From Deltaproteobacteria bacterium (GTDB lineage Bacteria > Bdellovibrionota > JACOXK01): 64,000 bases of DNA. The stretch spans positions 52,226 through 116,225 of the forward strand of contig JACPKQ010000007.1 in NCBI GenBank assembly GCA_016186995.1, in the 5' to 3' direction. The notes under the pieces are model-generated. The model did no database searches and was not told the origin of the DNA. It saw nothing but the letters and a program-made list of their open reading frames with translations. Made by a program: the position numbers and the translations under genes. Positions 3,069-52,008 of the stretch are shown one piece after another; position 1 is the first letter of the stretch; each line of letters begins with the position of its first letter.

Positions 3069-3167
3069 ATGGCTCAAGTTAAAGGTATCCTTTTTGATCT
3101 CGACAACACGCTGATTGATTTTATGAAAATGAAGAGAATAACTTGTTTAGAGACTGCCTTTGCATGA
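3069..3167 (+). pseudogene. Fragment (32 codons) duplicating the N-terminus of the HAD hydrolase gene at 5589-6248
   Basis: Fragment: MAQVKGILFDLDNTLIDFMKMKRITCLETAFA*. Intact gene: MKKIKGILFDLDNTLIDFMKMKKMACSEAAAAM. DNA identity is about 75%, with many synonymous changes. The fragment terminates prematurely at TGA. Confidence 0.6.
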
Positions 3168-4256: not shown

Positions 4257-4980
4257 TGTGACCAATACAAAAGCCGGTAAGCAATATGTTGGCGAGTCCT
4301 CATGTACACTTGAAAAGCGTAGGCAATGGCACATGAAGCAAGTTTACGGTGAAAAGAGACCTGCTGAAGGTAGTTTGCAGGAGGCGATTAAAAGAGATGA
4401 ACCTGAGTATTTTAAATGGAAAGTGCTTGCACGCTGTAGGTCGATAGATCAAGCTAACAGACTCGAACGAAAATTTATCAGAGAGTTTAATACTTCATAC
4501 CCACATGGTTACAATCTTCGGCGAGGTGGGACAGGCATTTCAAAAAAAGGTAAAAAAATATTGGTGAATGGGAAGCCTTTTGACTCTTACAGAGCTGCAG
4601 CTGATGCCCATGGTGTAAATATTGGAACATTTCAGGATAGGTTGTACGCGGGGTATTCACCCGAACAGGCTGCTGGTTTGATTCCGCTTGATAAAGTGCA
4701 TCCAAAATCACGTAAAATTAAAATAGATAATATAGAATATCCAACAATAAAAGATGCTGCTAAAGCTGCTGGTCAGCCTGCAAATAGAGTGAGAAATAGA
4801 ATTCACTCTGGCTGGTCTGTAGAAAAGGCGCTTAAAACACCATTTTCGAGAAGAGATACTCCTGTGAAAATTGATGGTACCACTTATTCATCAATGGGGG
4901 TTGCTGCAAGGAAATTAGGTATTAATTATGACACATTGAGATACAGGCTGAAAAAGCAAAGGAAGAACATGTATGTTTAA
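4195..4980 (+). CDS. GIY-YIG family homing-endonuclease-like protein with three C-terminal NUMOD-like repeats. Either it starts on TTG or it is the frameshifted continuation of 3447-4256.
   Basis: PVYSVTNTKAGKQYVGES...LEKRRQWH...FNTSYPHGYNLRRGG matches the GIY-x10-YIG motif, the conserved Arg and the catalytic Glu region. It is followed by VNGKPFDSYRAAADAHGVNIGTFQDRLYAGYSPEQAAG-type repeats. There is no in-frame ATG upstream of the GIY motif. Confidence 0.6.
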   Translation: MRKRLILKKGIIDLSQLPVYSVTNTKAGKQYVGESSCTLEKRRQWHMKQVYGEKRPAEGSLQEAIKRDEPEYFKWKVLARCRSIDQANRLERKFIREFNTSYPHGYNLRRGGTGISKKGKKILVNGKPFDSYRAAADAHGVNIGTFQDRLYAGYSPEQAAGLIPLDKVHPKSRKIKIDNIEYPTIKDAAKAAGQPANRVRNRIHSGWSVEKALKTPFSRRDTPVKIDGTTYSSMGVAARKLGINYDTLRYRLKKQRKNMYV

Positions 4981-5592: not shown

Positions 5593-6248
5593 AAAAAATA
5601 AAAGGTATACTCTTTGATTTGGATAATACACTCATAGATTTCATGAAAATGAAGAAAATGGCTTGTTCTGAGGCTGCAGCAGCCATGCTTGGTGCAGGGC
5701 TAAAAATAAAAGCAGAGAACTTGGCAGATGATCTTTTTAAATATTATTTAAATTATGGTATTGAGGGTGATTATCCTTTCACTGACTTTTTAAAAGAGCA
5801 TAATGCCTATAAAGATGAAATTCTGGCAGCAGCAATCAATGCTTATAATCGGGTGAAATCAGCTTTTCTAGAACCCTATCCAGGGGTGATTCCAACGTTC
5901 ATTAAGTTAATTAAAAAAGGAATAAAGCTTGGTATTGTGACAGATGCCCCTTCTTTAAAAGCTCACAGAAGAATTGACTCTATGAAGCTTCACGGATTTT
6001 TCGATGTCGTTGTTACTGAAGCAAATAAACCTGATCCGAAAGGTTTTTTGGAGGCTGTGAAGAAATTGAATCTGGAGCCAAAAGAAGTCATGATGCTCGG
6101 TGATTGGCCTGAGAAAGACATAGTTGGGGCTAAAAACGCAGGACTCATCACTTGTTTTGCAAAGTATGGGCAAATGGAAAATGTTAAAGAGAAAGTTGAA
6201 GCTGACTATGTGATTCAACGAATTGAGGAGGTTAATCAAATTTTATGA
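5589..6248 (+). CDS. HAD-superfamily hydrolase (subfamily IA; phosphatase or pyrophosphatase-like)
   Basis: Motif I DxDxT in ILFDLDNTLIDF. Motif III is K within VTEANKPDPKGF. Motif IV is GD in MLGDWPEKDIVGAKNAG. GTG start. Confidence 0.75.
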   Translation: MKKIKGILFDLDNTLIDFMKMKKMACSEAAAAMLGAGLKIKAENLADDLFKYYLNYGIEGDYPFTDFLKEHNAYKDEILAAAINAYNRVKSAFLEPYPGVIPTFIKLIKKGIKLGIVTDAPSLKAHRRIDSMKLHGFFDVVVTEANKPDPKGFLEAVKKLNLEPKEVMMLGDWPEKDIVGAKNAGLITCFAKYGQMENVKEKVEADYVIQRIEEVNQIL

Positions 6249-35559: not shown

Positions 35560-35626
35560 AGTTTTAATGAACTAAGACTGGATCCTTCGACGAGCTCAGG
35601 ATGACAGAGAGGGTCGCGGGAATGAC

Positions 35627-36508
35627 ATGTCAAAGAAGGCTATGAGAATGGGGTATCGGGTTTACATTCTATTTTTTTGTTCCTTTTTATTATTGTGGGG
35701 GTGTGGTGGTAATACAGATGGGCGAAGCCCATCGAGTGCACATCAACTTTTACCAACAGGAACCGCTCAAGCCCACAATTCAAATTGTTTTGTAGAGAAC
35801 TACAGAGGGTTTGATTTAAGATGTTTAAGTCCGCACAATGCTTCCCAAAGTCTTAAAGACGACATGGTCAAAGAATGGCTTGATTTTTTAAGGTTTGACA
35901 CCCATCAATACGATTTTCTTGGGGCTGAAAAAGATCCGTTTACCTTTGTACTTAATAGAGCTGATATTTTTACCTATCTTGCAGATGATGATGTTTATCG
36001 AGATATAAAAACCTCCTATTATGACCCGCAAGATTTTTATAGCCACATAGGAAATGCAAGTGGTGTGAATATTTATGGATTACAAGAAAAAGTAGTAGGC
36101 ATTTTTCCACTCGCTTTTTTAGATATTCAATATTGGCAAAGCCCACGTTTTTTAAGTCAGGAATCCATTCAAATATTACAAAATAGTTTTTTATTACCCC
36201 TTAAGCAAAGTAATGTACATCGTGCTATGGGAGCAGCTCTTTTACTTCATGAAGCAGATCATTCAACGTATGGGCCACATCAAACCCAGGTAGGATTGAG
36301 TGATCCTTATGGACTTCAAATGCAGTATCTTATAGAAGTTGCTTTAAGTGGACATCACCCACTTTTAAATCAGTGCTTTGATCGAAAGCAGATCATTCAA
36401 GAAGCCCTTGTTCTAGGAGATTCAAATATGAATCAACAAGAGTTTGATAATTATCACGCTTCACTTCTTCTACGTCTTGCTACTTTTTACTCTCAAGCCT
36501 GTCCTTAA
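35627..36508 (+). CDS. Lipoprotein of unknown function
   Basis: Signal peptide with lipobox LLLWGCGG. An alternative start lies at ATG 35645. Confidence 0.5.
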   Translation: MSKKAMRMGYRVYILFFCSFLLLWGCGGNTDGRSPSSAHQLLPTGTAQAHNSNCFVENYRGFDLRCLSPHNASQSLKDDMVKEWLDFLRFDTHQYDFLGAEKDPFTFVLNRADIFTYLADDDVYRDIKTSYYDPQDFYSHIGNASGVNIYGLQEKVVGIFPLAFLDIQYWQSPRFLSQESIQILQNSFLLPLKQSNVHRAMGAALLLHEADHSTYGPHQTQVGLSDPYGLQMQYLIEVALSGHHPLLNQCFDRKQIIQEALVLGDSNMNQQEFDNYHASLLLRLATFYSQACP

Positions 36509-39102: not shown

Positions 39103-39903
39103 ATGTCACTCAGAAAGTCGATATTTGTTTTAGTGACTGTATGTGCTGGATTGTTTTATCAGCCTGTGAATGCAGCGGAAAGTGTGGGCCTGTTAGGTAG
39201 CACTCTTCGTGAGCATGCACGAGAAATCCACAGAGCTTCAGAAAGAATGGTAGCTCAAGCCGAAGCCTACAAAGGCTATTACGATTCTGATAACTTTCAT
39301 GTAGTTTATCAGTTAAGAGACTTAGAAAGCTCAGCCAGACGCTTCCGTAGCCGGGTAGATTCGTGGTTGCAAGATCCTTCTCTTGCCTACAACGAATTTT
39401 ATGATGTTGCAGGCGATCTTGAAGATGTAAAAATGGTAGCTTCACGAGCTACTTTTTTTCGTTTCATTATGGATGATTTGAATCGAGCAAGTGAAAGCGT
39501 AAGAGAGCTTCGTTTGTATTATTATGGTTATGGTTACCGTCATTGGGATGATCATTATAGAGATGATCGTGAAAGACGTCGCCATGAAGAACGTGAACGT
39601 CGTGAGCGTGAAAGAAGAGACCATTGGGATCGAGATGGACATCGCTACGATCGAGATCGTCATGAACGTGAAAGAAGAGATCGCGAACGTTGGGACAGAG
39701 ACCGTCGTGATCGTGAAGAGCGCGACAGAAATGAACGTGAACGTCGTGAAAGAGAAAGACGTGAACGTGAAGATCGTGAAAGGCGCGATCGTGATAACCG
39801 AGATCGAGACCGTTGGGATAGAGACAGAGATCGTGATCGCGGAGATCGAGACCGTCGCGATCGTGAAGACCGTGAAAGACGCGATAGAAATCGCCATAGA
39901 TAA
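39103..39903 (+). CDS. Secreted protein with an N-terminal domain paralogous to 38315-39076 and a roughly 120-aa C-terminal Arg-Asp/Arg-Glu dipeptide-repeat tail
   Basis: Signal peptide MSLRKSIFVLVTVCAGLFYQPVNA. The tail reads RDDRERRRHEERERRERERRDHWDRDGHRYDRDRHERERRDRERWDRDRRDRE...RDRNRHR. The underlying DNA at 39538-39900 is an imperfect cgtga(a/t)cg(t/a)-type tandem repeat. Confidence 0.6.
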   Translation: MSLRKSIFVLVTVCAGLFYQPVNAAESVGLLGSTLREHAREIHRASERMVAQAEAYKGYYDSDNFHVVYQLRDLESSARRFRSRVDSWLQDPSLAYNEFYDVAGDLEDVKMVASRATFFRFIMDDLNRASESVRELRLYYYGYGYRHWDDHYRDDRERRRHEERERRERERRDHWDRDGHRYDRDRHERERRDRERWDRDRRDREERDRNERERRERERREREDRERRDRDNRDRDRWDRDRDRDRGDRDRRDREDRERRDRNRHR

Positions 39904-39926: not shown

Positions 39927-40015
39927 CTGTCATCGCGAGGGAATGAAATGACCGTGGCGATCTCATCGCAGTAGCGATGGGCATGGCGCAGCACCCTTAC
40001 CTCGCAATGACGAGG
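39927..40015. repeat. Copy of a dispersed palindromic repeat family with imperfect inverted termini CTGTCATCGCGAGG ... CCTCGCAATGACGAGG
   Basis: The termini are at 39927-39940 and 40000-40015. Internal small palindromes include gcgatctcatcgc. Confidence 0.55.
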
Positions 40016-40071: not shown

Positions 40072-40539
40072 ATGAGGGGTTTTCTAAAACCTTTCGCTTT
40101 TATTGCTTTTTTCCTTCCTTTTTTTTCTTTTTCTCTGTGGACAGGTGAATGGCAGGGTGAAGCAGAAATGCATTCTTATACCTTGCCTGCTTCAAAGGGA
40201 ATACTTTATGTTTCTTATACACAAACAGGGGTACAATTAGTTCTTAATAAAGCTCAGTACAAAACAAAATATACACAACAAGAATGGGGGCCCGAAACTT
40301 ACGAAATTCGAAACGGTGACCTTTTTGATGAGAGTAAAAAAATTGGAGAAGTGAGCGAAAATCACATTTCTATTTTTAGAGAAGCCCTGACTCCGCAAGG
40401 AAAGTATTATTTTGAAACCCATGTCACAAAAACAGGTGAACATTCTGTTTCTTATGATGAAAATTGGTTTACTCAGAAAAAGCCTGTTTACTCTTTAAAG
40501 GGCGTTCTCGAAGTAGTTCCAAGTCAAAAATTGCCTTGA
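40072..40539 (+). CDS. Secreted hypothetical protein
   Basis: Signal peptide MRGFLKPFAFIAFFLPFFSFSLW. TATAAT lies at 40056-40061. Confidence 0.4.
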   Translation: MRGFLKPFAFIAFFLPFFSFSLWTGEWQGEAEMHSYTLPASKGILYVSYTQTGVQLVLNKAQYKTKYTQQEWGPETYEIRNGDLFDESKKIGEVSENHISIFREALTPQGKYYFETHVTKTGEHSVSYDENWFTQKKPVYSLKGVLEVVPSQKLP

Positions 40540-42760: not shown

Positions 42761-42870
42761 TGTCATTGCGAGGCGAGGCCGAAGCAATCTCCTAGAATTG
42801 CTTTAGCAATTCTAGGACAACACTTGCGTGTTGGGATCGCCACGTCGCTTATAGCTCCTCGCGATGACAG
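42761..42870. repeat. Copy of the palindromic repeat family (termini TGTCATTGCGAGG ... CCTCGCGATGACA) with a nested perfect palindrome TCCTAGAATTGC-ttta-GCAATTCTAGGA
   Basis: The arms are at 42761-42773 and 42858-42870 with 1 mismatch. The nested palindrome is at 42790-42817. It lies between the convergent pdhB and bcp genes. Confidence 0.55.
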
Positions 42871-43813: not shown

Positions 43814-45505
43814 ATGAAGCTCAAAATTGTTGTTGGTATTTTTATTATTCTTACTTTTTCCTGTATTTTTAGTTATTTAAGTTTAGATCAAGAGTATTTA
43901 AAACAAACAGCTCCGGATAAGTGGGTGCATTGGGTTTCTGTATTACCCCCGCTCATTGCCATTGTTTTAGCTTATTTAACAGGCGAGATTATTTCTGCAC
44001 TTTTTGTGGCTGTTCTTTTAGGTGGTTTTATTGCTTCACCCAAAAACCCATTTTTGGCTCTCAAATTAAGTTTTTTTGATTTTATGTGGAAAAGTGTTCA
44101 AGATGAATTCCATATTCTTGTTGTTGTTTTCATTATAACGCTTGTGGGAATGGTTGCTGTGATGAGTCGAATGGGTGGAACTCAAGCCATTATTAATGTG
44201 TTTTCAAAAAAGGTAGGAACTGGACGTGGAGCAGAAATCATTACAGCCCTTTTGGGTATTTTTATTTTTTTTGACGATTATGCCAATACTATTTTAGTGG
44301 GAAGTTCAGCAAGACCTCTCACAGATAAATACAGAGTATCTCGAGAAAAACTTGCCTATCTTGTAGATTCAACCGCAGCTCCTGTAGCAGGGTTGGCTGT
44401 TCTTTCAACCTGGATTGGTTATGAAGTAGGGTTGTTTCAAACTGTTTTGTCCGAAATGCATTTAAATATTTCCGGTTACGAAGCTTTTTTTAGGGCTTTA
44501 CCTTTTCGTTTTTATTGTATTTTTACAATTTTTTTTGTTTTTTTAAATGTTATTTTAGGGAGGGATTTTGGAAGCATGCTTAAAGCGCAGAAAAGGGCCT
44601 ATCATGAGAATAAACTCTATGCAGATGATGCAGAGTTTAAAACATCCATTGCTGTTGAAAAAACAACAATGCATCATGGTGTTAAACCCAAATTGAGAAA
44701 TGCGACCTTACCTTTGATAGTTGTTATTTTAGTTATTTGGGTGGGGCTTTATTTAAGTGGTATGCGTAACATGTCATCCTCCGGTTTAACCGGAGGATCT
44801 CTCAGCATTATCCATCTTTTTTCTTTTGATATAATGCGACAATGTTTTTCAAATGCAGATAATCTTTTTGTTTTAGCAATGAGTGGAGTCATAGGCTCTC
44901 TTGTTGCACTTTTTTTAGCTGTATCTCAGAAGATTTTATCTTTTAAAGAAAGTCTTGCTACGTGGAGTTCTAGTTTTAAAGCTATTATCTCTCCACTTTG
45001 TATTCTTATTTTAGCCTGGTCTATTCAAAGGGTGTGTGATCATCTTGGAACAAGTCTTTTTTTAACGGCGACACTTAAAAATTTTGTGTCACCTGGGTTT
45101 TTACCACTTCTTATTTTTATTCTGGCCGGCGTTATTGCTTTTGCTACAGGAACCTCTTGGGGAACTATGGCCATTCTTATTCCTACAGCCATTCCTCTGA
45201 CTTATCACATGGGTGGATTAGAACTTACTTTCATTTCAATGGCAGCTGTGTTAGATGGTGCCATTTTTGGAGATCACTGCTCTCCTGTTTCGGATACAAC
45301 GCTGATGTCTTCTATAGCTTCAGCCTGCGATCACATGCACCATGTTAAAACTCAACTTCCCTATGCACTTGTATGTATGGTTCTGTCTTCAACTCTAGGA
45401 TATTATCTAAGCATTTCGGGTATTCATGTTGTGATCTCTTATGTTTTAGGTGGACTCGCCAGTTTTTTTATTCTTATGTTTATAGGCAAGAGGGTGAGAA
45501 CGTGA
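43814..45505 (+). CDS. Na+/H+ antiporter NhaC-family membrane transporter
   Basis: About 12 TM segments. The NhaC-type conserved stretch is GSSARPLTDKYRVSREKLAYLVDSTAAPVAGLA. Confidence 0.55.
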   Translation: MKLKIVVGIFIILTFSCIFSYLSLDQEYLKQTAPDKWVHWVSVLPPLIAIVLAYLTGEIISALFVAVLLGGFIASPKNPFLALKLSFFDFMWKSVQDEFHILVVVFIITLVGMVAVMSRMGGTQAIINVFSKKVGTGRGAEIITALLGIFIFFDDYANTILVGSSARPLTDKYRVSREKLAYLVDSTAAPVAGLAVLSTWIGYEVGLFQTVLSEMHLNISGYEAFFRALPFRFYCIFTIFFVFLNVILGRDFGSMLKAQKRAYHENKLYADDAEFKTSIAVEKTTMHHGVKPKLRNATLPLIVVILVIWVGLYLSGMRNMSSSGLTGGSLSIIHLFSFDIMRQCFSNADNLFVLAMSGVIGSLVALFLAVSQKILSFKESLATWSSSFKAIISPLCILILAWSIQRVCDHLGTSLFLTATLKNFVSPGFLPLLIFILAGVIAFATGTSWGTMAILIPTAIPLTYHMGGLELTFISMAAVLDGAIFGDHCSPVSDTTLMSSIASACDHMHHVKTQLPYALVCMVLSSTLGYYLSISGIHVVISYVLGGLASFFILMFIGKRVRT

Positions 45506-50831: not shown

Positions 50832-50859
50832 AAAAAATAAGATCCCTGCTTTCGCAGGG
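50832..50859 (-). terminator. Rho-independent terminator for the minus-strand kefB/CaCA transcription unit
   Basis: On the minus strand, CCCTGC-GAAA-GCAGGG is followed by ATCTTATTTTTTG. Confidence 0.55.
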
Positions 50860-50916
50860 ATGACAGACAGTATAGAAGTAAAATGACTTCCTTATAAAGT
50901 CAATGAGATTGCCGCG

Positions 50917-50947
50917 CCTCATTTCATTCGGCTCGCAATGACGAGGA
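50917..50947. repeat. Half-copy of the palindromic repeat family (CCTCATTTCATTCGGCTCGCAATGACGAGG)
   Basis: About 80% identical to the reverse complement of the left half of the 39927-40015 element. A further degenerate arm, GGGATGACAGACAGTAT, lies at 50857-50875. Confidence 0.45.
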
Positions 50948-50954
50948 GGTTTTG

Positions 50955-51905
50955 TTAATATCGATAGAGAAAATAAAGAAATGTGGCATACCCAAGCAAG
51001 AAAAAGATACCTGTTTTTTTACCTATGTGAACGTGTTTAAAGGCAAGGGGTGCAAAAATAAATGTGACGAGAAGCATAACAGGTATAGAAAGATAAAGAA
51101 TATCATTGCTGATTGTTACATTTGAAAACCCAACGATACCCCCAATGACAAGAATATTAAGAATATTGCTTCCGATAATAGTTCCTAAAGAAATTTGAGG
51201 TTTTCCTTTTAAAACAGCCATGAGACTCACAGACAGTTCTGGAAGGGAAGTGCCCACGGCTATAATAGAGGTTCCGATGATAGAGTCTGAGATTCCAAAA
51301 TAAGTTGCAATATGAACCCCTGTTTTGGTCACGACTTCCCCACCAATAACAAGAAAGACAAGTCCAAGAACAATGAGTAAAAGATCTCTGGCATAATTTC
51401 CTTCTTTTTGAATATCTTCTATATCAAGCTGCTTTTTAAATTGTTTGTCTTCACGAAAAGCTAGTTTTAAATAATAAAAAAGAAATAGTGCTAAAGCTAC
51501 AAGGAGAATAACACTTTCATAAGGTTGTAAAACTTTATCAAAGCAAAAAAGAGCAAAAAGAAGAGAAGCAGCATAAACAGCAACAAGTTCTTTGATAATG
51601 TTTTCAGATTTAATGTTGATATCAAGAAATAAAAGACAGATTCCAAATATCAAAGCAATGTTTGCAATATTGCTTCCTACTATGTTTCCAACGGCAATAC
51701 CAGAGGCCCCATGCCACGCAGCGAGAACACTCACACACACTTCTGGTAGTGAAGTTCCTAGGGCAATAATGGTAGCTGCAATAACAATAGGTTTTATACC
51801 CAAAAGAAGGGCAAGGTTGGAGGCCCCATCTACAAGAACCTTAGCCCCGTAGGAGAGAAAAAGAATTCCGCCAAACAAAAGTAAAAAAGAAATTCCAATA
51901 CTCAT
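50955..51905 (-). CDS. Ca2+/Na+ antiporter of the CaCA family (YrbG-like)
   Basis: Two alpha-repeat signatures: LGTSLPEVCVS and VGTSLPELSVS. I place the start at ATG 51905 (MSIGISFLLL). The supplied ORF extends to 52004 through a 33-bp palindrome. Confidence 0.7.
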   Translation of the reverse strand: MSIGISFLLLFGGILFLSYGAKVLVDGASNLALLLGIKPIVIAATIIALGTSLPEVCVSVLAAWHGASGIAVGNIVGSNIANIALIFGICLLFLDINIKSENIIKELVAVYAASLLFALFCFDKVLQPYESVILLVALALFLFYYLKLAFREDKQFKKQLDIEDIQKEGNYARDLLLIVLGLVFLVIGGEVVTKTGVHIATYFGISDSIIGTSIIAVGTSLPELSVSLMAVLKGKPQISLGTIIGSNILNILVIGGIVGFSNVTISNDILYLSIPVMLLVTFIFAPLAFKHVHIGKKTGIFFLLGYATFLYFLYRY

Positions 51906-51975
51906 TTCTTTTTTATACCAAAGAAATAGGATTCTTGATAGGAAAGATATGGTGAAAAATGATGTAGTTGTTGAT

Positions 51976-52008
51976 TTTTGTGGCACTTTTATCAAAAGTG
52001 CCACAAAA
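51976..52008. promoter_or_regulatory. Perfect palindrome with 15-bp arms, TTTTGTGGCACTTTT-atc-AAAAGTGCCACAAAA
   Basis: It lies 10 nt downstream of the kefB-like stop and about 70 nt upstream of the CaCA start. No U-tract follows on the minus strand. Confidence 0.5.

Follow-up and report, generated by a model that had tools for sequence, protein, structure and literature searches.

Repetitive extragenic palindromic (REP) sequences carrying a CGTC tag were described as a superfamily, with families CGTC-1 to CGTC-4, by Di Nocera et al. (2013, BMC Genomics 14:522, PMC3733652). The units have an unpaired C/TGTC tag, a stem starting with A-T and then T-A, and a short tail whose first base is C, and they are mostly found as inverted dimers. 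They lie less than 20 nt past the 3' ends of open reading frames (ORFs), occasional copies are intragenic and in frame, and no dedicated transposase is described. The dRS3 of Neisseria and RPE-4 and RPE-6 of Rickettsia are members, and the table of encoded peptides lists VIPAKAGI and SFPRKRES. Here, two palindromes of approximately 80-110 bp, located in a 64-kb stretch of DNA of an uncultured bacterium (G+C 36.4%; "the window" denotes this whole stretch), are compared with this superfamily and with the Ssn nuclease system.

The second system was described by Chenal et al. (2025, Nat Commun 16:2388, PMC11893778). It comprises the Neisseria NTS (CGTCATTCCCGCGMAVGCGGGAATCYRG), the Ssn-related motifs (SRM) and SsnA, a single-domain GIY-YIG nuclease of 94 residues. 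SsnA binds NTS only as single-stranded DNA and in one orientation, cuts it a few nt upstream of the motif, and is reported there not to interact with RNA. The C that follows the palindrome is crucial for binding, and the three bases ahead of the palindrome (GTC) are needed for cleavage. Such motifs are present in the flanks of 71% of the ssnA homologues, and among genomes that contain over 200 SRM, 19% have no SsnA homologue. In meningococci the Ssn system restricts transformation. An architecture similar to that of an insertion sequence (IS) was raised by the same authors as a hypothesis (PMC11893778).

Based on the results given below, the palindromes of the window belong to a sub-family of the YGTC ('CGTC')-tagged REPs and Ssn-related motifs, and they are probably non-autonomous and acted on by an Ssn-type nuclease. 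An anonymous-looking intergenic repeat of an uncultured bacterium is in this way assigned to a recently described hairpin/nuclease system. A preliminary description, made from the letters of the window, had reported at least two full palindromes of a dispersed family, and both were found at the claimed places. Inspection of the sequence set their bounds at 39928-40012 (copy 1) and 42761-42869 (copy 2). Each palindrome consists of two inverted modules with their heads outward and a variable spacer between them. The functional unit is the strand-specific hairpin module and not the whole palindrome, a point that had been missed. The parts of both copies, together with a single module found at 50.9 kb, are as follows (R1 scores come from the covariance model presented afterwards):

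39928-39962, plus strand: left module of copy 1, intact, with a TGTC tag, stem ATCGC/GCGAT, core GAGG-GAATGAAATGACCGTG and a 3' C (R1 33.3 bits, E 6.7e-7).
39963-39999: centre of copy 1, with a hairpin ATCGC-AGTA-GCGAT at 39965-39978 and then a degenerate right-arm body (sequence and fold).
40000-40012, minus strand: right arm of copy 1, with an intact 12-nt head CGTCATTGCGAGG at 40000-40011 (exact 12-mer match).
42761-42789, plus strand: left module of copy 2, intact, TGTCATTGCGAGG-CGAGGCCGAA-GCAATC (R1 36.3 bits, E 1e-7).
42790-42834: central spacer of copy 2, with small hairpins at 42792-42815 and 42817-42833 (sequence and fold).
42835-42869, minus strand: right module of copy 2, intact, TGTCATCGCGAGG-AGCTATAAGCGACGTG-GCGATC (R1 38.5 bits, E 2.6e-8).
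50907-50943, minus strand: single complete module, CGTCATTGCGAGC...GCAATC (R1 32.6 bits, E 1e-6).

The covariance model R1 was built from 60 modules of other genomes and from none of the window. When it was applied to the window, exactly four significant modules were obtained (E 1e-6 to 2.6e-8), and the next match had an E value of 0.23. The 12-mer GTCATYGCGAGG, allowing at most one mismatch, occurred five times in the window, as compared with 0.18 in dinucleotide shuffles, and none of the 100 shuffles reached five. Copy 1 had been considered a full element; its right arm indeed retains the 12-nt head, but no recognisable GCRATC tail and no R1 match were found there, which corresponds to a decayed module. 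In its left module the covarying stem pair is the C-G variant. The core of the 50907-50943 module is akin to that of this left module (GAATGAAATGA). A degenerate half-copy had been proposed at 50917-50947; an element is present at this place, in the form of a complete single module instead of a half. The left module of copy 2 was also found on a Logan contig (L134) from another sequencing run of the same organism (SRR12113420). This short-read contig ends inside the central hairpin of copy 2.

The anatomy of the module was obtained by comparison with 137 full elements of other genomes. It measures about 30-40 nt and is formed by an unpaired YGTC tag, ATYGC, GAG(G), a variable insert, CGNR, GCRAT and C. 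In the hairpin, the 5-bp basal stem ATYGC/GCRAT is followed by a non-canonical step (G.N, A.G, then G-C) and by a variable upper stem-loop, and a C comes after the stem. The upper stem spans 3-50 nt, and the core is 18 nt long with a range of 10-50. Of 270 arms, 152 (56%) have a C before GTC and 105 (39%) have a T, and all the modules of the window begin with TGTC or CGTC. Modules of this sub-family, referred to here by the ATYGCGAGG string, are also written as the ATTGCGAGG type. The search string YGTCATYGCGAGG can be used for them as an alternative to R1.

Pairing was evidenced by covariation. Head position 6 and its counterpart in the tail formed 221 T-A, 28 C-G, 5 T.G and 1 C.A combinations (Fisher p = 4e-31). 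As position 6 is frequently not the same in the two arms of a dimer, this pairing takes place within the module. The proposed continuous hairpin was scored for covariation on 60 distinct modules whose core measures 18 nt; it obtained 0.214, as compared with 0.081 in shuffled data, and none of 500 shuffles attained its value. In the same set, 56 doubly changed cells were counted where 15 were expected, and slid controls scored 0.10 at most. The pair tables displayed a nearly invariant A.G, a G.A/G.T/G-C step and a G-C pair over the basal stem; above these, the pairs compensate freely and mostly end in a GNA loop. Stem columns 5/32 and 6/31 were AU and UA in 60 of 60 sequences, and the same is true for all the window modules. 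Every single module forms its own hairpin, which is conserved, strand-specific and irregular. Complementarity of the flanks past position -1 was weak (0.29-0.41 vs 0.25 expected).

The distribution of the elements was evaluated with the full-palindrome pattern. It was found in at least 120 stretches of bacterial contigs, taken with one genome per species, and in 13 stretches of viral contigs. Among the matches listed, the carriers belong to Bacteroidota, Chloroflexota, Alpha-, Beta- and Gammaproteobacteria, Omnitrophota, Verrucomicrobiota, Gemmatimonadota, Bacillota, the candidate phyla radiation (CPR) and Bdellovibrionales, with G+C contents of 0.32-0.72. Pedobacter, Mucilaginibacter, Flavobacterium, Bradyrhizobium, Rhodomicrobium and a Rickettsiaceae symbiont are named carriers in the same set of matches. 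The inner motif CGNRGCAATC lies outside the search pattern and is still conserved in these matches. It had been stated beforehand that finding local copies only would speak for a local duplication. The spread of the same termini and inner motif over many phyla and viral contigs instead bears out the proposed dispersed, REP-like palindromic family. Proteins at the two ends of the window, used to extend the sequence of this genome, led only to Logan contigs of 2-7 kb. In Rfam, the sole window match at the gathering score was a tRNA, and nothing was found over the elements at E ≤ 10. Literature searches with the DNA string and with the repeat-encoded peptides returned unrelated primers or nothing.

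A related metagenome-assembled genome (GCA_016182335.1) carries an intact dimer of the same grammar (L135, 4319-4403) directly past the stop codon of the orthologous dehydrogenase E1 beta gene (71% identical), the gene that precedes copy 2. The stems of this dimer are unlike those of the window, being ATTCT/AGAAT on the left and ATTGC/GCAAT on the right. The downstream gene also differs from that of the window, showing that synteny stops at the element. On IMG/VR contigs L012, L003 and L009, several identical dimers and clusters of modules were observed between tail, baseplate and lysis-type phage genes, so the repeats also reside in phage genomes. Another locus (L107) has two dimers 2.5 kb apart, at 2251-2331 and 4876-4956, whose outer and inner flanks are mutual reverse complements. 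This pair brackets a response-regulator ORF segment and may represent an inversion or a composite structure.

The preliminary description had also considered a miniature inverted-repeat transposable element (MITE). A classical MITE would be a deletion derivative of an IS with a DDE transposase, and the element is in agreement with such an origin in that it is small, intergenic and present in many copies and has terminal inverted repeats of 12 bp. The Correia/NEMIS MITEs are comparable in being short, intergenic, co-transcribed and present in many copies with terminal inverted repeats. However, direct repeats flanking the elements were at chance level for k=2 (7 vs 8.4 expected) and k=3 (3 vs 2.1), and none was found for k=4-5 (0/135 at k=4). 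No transposase was detected in the flanks. When the neighbouring genes within 1.5 kb of 133 element loci were clustered, no shared protein was obtained, and the only 'cluster' was the translated repeat itself. This absence of a conserved neighbouring gene indicates that no transposase accompanies the element. Moreover, single modules occur alone and covary as hairpins. Correia/NEMIS elements have a target-site duplication and a DDE parent IS, whereas here neither was found and a single hairpin is the functional unit. A classical MITE is consequently not supported, its probability being regarded as very low. The Coxiella QMITE was compared as well and rejected as unrelated, QMITE2 being of the GTAG type.

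With the CGTC-REPs, the modules share the tag, the A-T/T-A start of the stem, the 3' C tail, the inverted dimers, the placement past ORF ends, the occasional in-frame copy within a gene and the lack of a transposase. CGTC-REPs are rarely found between divergent genes, and the same was observed for these elements in other genomes (2 divergent gene pairs vs 33 co-directional and 9 convergent). The 8-9-bp stem and 4-5-nt loop of the CGTC-REPs, in contrast, differ from the 5 Watson-Crick pairs and 10-50-nt core of the ATYGCGAGG modules. Only one hairpin of the window, at 50841-50865 and described further below, complies with the former dimensions.

The likeness to NTS and SRM includes the strand-specific hairpin, the YGTC head, the AT-started stem and the C after the stem. 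In both cases copies lie with their heads outward on both sides of a gene for a single-domain GIY-YIG protein of about 100 residues, some genomes have hundreds of copies, and many phyla are involved. The stem of NTS and SRM is a simple perfect one of 8-10 bp, whereas the body of the ATYGCGAGG type has a 5-bp stem, a conserved GAG/CGN step and a variable upper stem.

The association with such a gene was evaluated outward from the gene. In Flavihumibacter soli (L096), a 101-residue GIY-YIG protein is encoded amid arrays of GTCATTGCGAGG modules. Homology to this protein was the sole criterion by which 80 metagenome loci were collected. The density of the 12-mer in these loci was 6.7 per kb at 0-100 bp from the gene, 4.0 at 100-250 bp, 0.9 at 250-500 bp and 0.11-0.24 beyond 500 bp, a 40-60-fold enrichment of the interval next to the gene relative to the most distant one. 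A module was present within 500 bp of the gene in 68 of the 80 loci and on both sides in 48. The association holds over contig G+C contents of 0.32-0.64. An orientation opposite to that of the gene was found for the nearest downstream module in 50 of 64 loci, and the same orientation for the nearest upstream one in 35 of 56, which gives a typical unit of YGTCAT...ATC, gene, GAT...ATGACR. The gene sits at the position where dimers have their spacer (L140, L186, L214 and L096 are explicit examples), and by comparison of architectures the spacer of copy 2 corresponds to the GIY-YIG gene of these units. The tie of the family to Ssn-type GIY-YIG single-strand nucleases had escaped the preliminary description. 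Beside the gene of F. soli, tandem head-only fragments (CGTCATTGCGAGGAACGATCC-TCTTT) that do not carry the tail half of the module were noted at 1745-1870 and 2530-2600.

The partner protein has about 100 residues and PF01541 as its sole domain. A gonococcal orthologue of SsnA was identified by tblastn in NZ_CP119140.1 (L219) and NZ_CP119142.1, and the F. soli protein is 46% identical to it over 91 residues (E 4e-28). The gonococcal ORF encodes 94 residues, among them Y6, Y17 and E64, and 16 NTS copies surround it at distances of up to about 1 kb on either side. Residues Y13, Y24 and E72 of the F. soli protein align with Y6, Y17 and E64; in the clade, Y24 and E72 are invariant and Y13 is conserved in at least 90%. 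On the basis of this sequence similarity, the partner protein is assigned to the SsnA family (cd10448). In the PDB, only the distant UPF0213 entry 1zg2 was matched. The two gonococcal sequences are listed in PLSDB as 'plasmids' and are in fact 2.17-Mb chromosomes of Neisseria gonorrhoeae, and the ssnA orthologue is absent from the distributed gene table.

Close homologues within the clade are flanked by other stem types, namely NTS-like (L173), ATCCT, ATTCT and ATCCC. On a plasmid of Spirosoma oryzicola (L220, 1048-1150), the modules that flank the Ssn-family gene have the GAGG-AAC-GA core of the minimal ATTGC module with the stem ATCCC/GGGAT. As this core is kept with another stem, stem and core seem to vary independently. 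On plasmid p1 of Planktothrix agardhii (L221, 18847-19131), the Ssn-family gene has an MmeI-type restriction-modification gene on one side and the DISARM gene drmA on the other, a defence-island context. Many of the homologous GIY-YIG genes are on contigs of 0.5-1 kb, and the repeats seem to break short-read assemblies. They also seed spurious small ORFs.

The same layout, in which an inverted hairpin pair encloses a spacer, carries a 5' tag and is extragenic, is known from the REPINs (Bertels and Rainey 2011, PMC3116915), which are mobilised by RAYT, an HUH tyrosine transposase of the IS200/IS605 type. In that system, too, the inverted hairpin pair is a replicating, non-autonomous unit, a single-copy enzyme gene is flanked by repeats, and recognition occurs at the level of the single-stranded DNA hairpin (PMC3116915). 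The tag of the present elements, however, is YGTC and not GTAG/GTGG, and the flanked gene encodes a hydrolytic GIY-YIG nuclease instead of an HUH tyrosine transposase. No conserved neighbour protein was found at the 133 element loci, and Di Nocera et al. found no tyrosine transposase that is flanked by CGTC units (PMC3733652). REPINs are lineage-specific, while the termini are nearly identical across phyla here. Mobilisation by a RAYT was therefore judged very unlikely.

The elements lie close behind gene ends, as had been pointed out in the preliminary description, with gaps of 7 to 24 nt from the stop codons in the window. Copy 1 is located 24 nt past the stop codon of ORF 39103-39903, and ORF 40072-40539 follows it after about 60 nt. 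Copy 2 lies between the convergent genes of a pyruvate/2-oxoacid dehydrogenase E1 beta (stop 42754; gap 7 nt) and an AhpC/Bcp peroxiredoxin (stop 42884). The module at 50907-50943 is 12 nt downstream of the stop of a Na/Ca-exchanger ORF (50955-52004, minus strand). In other genomes the median distance past the stop is 32 nt. This placement, with the prevalence of co-directional over convergent and divergent gene pairs given above, is what is expected of an RNA-level, REP-like element whose hairpin at the 3' end protects the mRNA or blocks convergent read-through, the link to the nuclease being incidental. For copy 2, the predicted RNA folding is indeed strong on either strand (z -6.5 and -6.3), and Di Nocera et al. 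infer the same role for the CGTC-REPs (PMC3733652).

The fold of the sense strand of copy 1 is weak (z -1.7), and no T-tract is present past either element. The sequences that follow them are GAGGCCTTTTGC and AGACTTGTATGC, with no T-run, and the terminator scan lists none ending at the 3' borders of the elements; the suggested role as intrinsic terminator was thus rejected. An RNA-level function also leaves unexplained the conservation across phyla of a strand-specific tag and a 3' C, the 40-60-fold concentration at Ssn genes and the existence of an intragenic copy. In addition, SsnA is described as having no interaction with RNA (PMC11893778). This explanation was considered unlikely, although it retains an appreciable chance. 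Being just behind stop codons, the elements are co-transcribed, and a secondary effect on transcript 3' ends may exist. Alternatively, the placement behind stops may simply reflect where insertions are tolerated.

For the preferred interpretation, that of hairpins acted on by an Ssn-type nuclease, the following mechanism is proposed. The module would fold into its hairpin when its strand becomes single-stranded, that is, during replication, in transcription bubbles or in incoming DNA. A cognate Ssn-type GIY-YIG nuclease, encoded outside the window, would bind the folded module and would nick the single strand a few nt 5' of the tag. Binding to single-stranded DNA only and cutting upstream are features taken over from the SsnA literature and are expected here by analogy; the observations made here concern the anatomy and covariation of the module, its distribution, its association with the gene and the homology of the partner protein to SsnA. 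Since a dimer carries one site per strand, two nicks would be placed at its two outer borders, on opposite strands. The dimer has the layout of module, ssn gene and inverted module minus the gene, and for this reason the dimers most likely derive from such a unit, as non-autonomous forms that owe their spread or maintenance to the nuclease. They would then multiply or persist via nuclease activity.

Several points weigh against this interpretation. With regard to mobility, neither an empty site nor a target-site duplication was found. The Ssn nucleases act by hydrolysis, and no strand-transfer step is known for them. A search with the clade profile (hmmsearch, E ≤ 1) revealed no GIY-YIG ORF in the 64-kb window. 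A GIY-YIG gene was near only one of the 133 element loci, that of F. soli, and the gene link is visible only outward from the gene. Cleavage by SsnA is documented for the NTS, and the ATYGCGAGG sub-family is known from its sequences. Furthermore, the published SRM motif, HGTCWYN(0-2)YYVSBRHN(0-5)WNVSBRGN(0-2)RNCYNB, was matched by 0 of 410 ATYGCGAGG modules, and among 80 flanks of clade genes it was matched by a single one. The window copies may also be relics, the right arm of copy 1 being decayed.

This last possibility can be extended to a situation in which all copies are decaying remnants of a past expansion, the cognate nuclease of the genome is gone and nothing acts now. The lost tail of copy 1, the truncated head at 35611-35627 (see below) and the lack of a GIY-YIG gene in the window would be explained in this way, and a genome rich in SRM that lacks SsnA is not exceptional (19%, as cited above from PMC11893778). 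On the other hand, four modules match with E ≤ 1e-6 a model derived from other phyla and have kept the covarying stem pair. The relative with the orthologous E1 beta gene has a differing yet intact dimer after it. Complete fossilisation was consequently seen as rather doubtful.

The failure of the published motif places the ATYGCGAGG specificity class outside the reach of the motif search of Chenal et al. (PMC11893778). The sub-family was wholly missed by that motif despite its occurrence in wide bacterial phyla and phage contigs. It is structurally distinct and, as far as the available text of the cited papers goes, apparently an undescribed sub-family of a known superfamily, with its own Ssn clade. 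Published variants, for instance the 'loops of different length' of Bradyrhizobium, may be of this type, the comparison having been made by text and without the consensus figures. A candidate enzyme specificity class can be proposed from these results, with a 5-bp stem, a conserved G.A step and a tolerated variable upper stem, for which matching enzymes were identified. Ssn enzymes are under development as site-specific single-stranded DNA cutters.

A more far-reaching version of the nuclease interpretation can be put forward only tentatively and is, on balance, not expected to hold. The palindromes would be the gene-less form of a selfish unit of about 0.45-0.5 kb, composed of a module, the gene of the 100-residue GIY-YIG nuclease and an inverted module, and spread across phyla and into phages by nuclease-induced single-strand breaks and repair, with no transposase involved. 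The head-out orientation counts and the location of the gene at the position of the dimer spacer provide new support for the IS-like hypothesis mentioned at the beginning. The mirroring of the gene-carrying unit by a gene-less dimer bears on how CGTC-type REPs could multiply with no transposase. If true, mobile DNA would include an IS/MITE-like class that relies on a hydrolytic single-stranded DNA endonuclease.

In order to find related hairpins in the window, a scan for the common grammar (YGTC, AT-started stem, ...AT, and C after the stem) was used. Eight sites were obtained, while mononucleotide shuffles gave 0.94 on average and never more than 5. Beyond the four R1 modules, four further hairpins of sister types are present in the window, one of them within an NhaC gene. 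The features of this kind are the following:

50841-50865, minus strand: sister-type hairpin, CGTC-1/NTS-like, TGTCATCCCTGCGAAAGCAGGGATC = TGTC-ATCCCTGC-GAAA-GCAGGGAT-C, with an 8-bp stem and a 4-nt loop.
35581-35606, minus strand: sister-type hairpin of a third type, TGTC-ATCCT-GAGCTCGTCGA-AGGAT-C (grammar scan).
35611-35627, minus strand: truncated NTS-like head TGTCATTCCCGCGACCC that lacks the 3' half (compare the NTS consensus CGTCATTCCCGCG...).
44772-44802, plus strand: intragenic hairpin TGTCATCCTCCGGTTTAACCGGAGGATCTCT (scan match 44772-44799), in frame in the NhaC-family ORF 43814-45505.

The hairpin at 50841-50865 is located between the 50.9-kb module and tRNA-His and has a DNA fold of -8.6 kcal/mol. 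Its translation, VIPAKAGI, is the CGTC-1 signature peptide in the table of Di Nocera et al. (PMC3733652), and judging by this encoded peptide it is a CGTC-1-type unit. A half-copy had been proposed at 50857-50875, which corresponds to the head of this complete hairpin. Likewise, the half-copy proposed at 35595-35625 was resolved into one complete hairpin of the third type and the truncated head. The copy at 35.6 kb had been thought to overlap the 5' end of a lipoprotein ORF; the head only abuts the ATG of ORF 35627-36508 at 35627, with 1 nt in common. The third hairpin type also flanks the Ssn-family gene of another locus (L188).

The hairpin at 44772-44802 was overlooked in the preliminary description, according to which all copies were intergenic. 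It encodes MSSSGLTGGSL (residues 320-330), in a loop of variable length which is 6 residues longer than in most homologues. It fits the SRM search motif of the literature, as does no other site of the window. The insertions of Rickettsia RPE in antiporter genes resemble this case.

Two minor observations were made elsewhere in the window. The ORF that precedes copy 1 (39103-39903, plus strand) has a signal-peptide-like N-terminus, and its C-terminal part of about 120 residues is a nearly pure R/D/E/W repeat (RDRERR...). This repeat yields the tandem DNA repeats D1-D4, and no Pfam match was obtained for the ORF. Finally, a direct repeat of 82 nt with 78% identity was found at 3076-3157 and 5596-5677, 2.5 kb apart, which probably reflects two paralogous genes.

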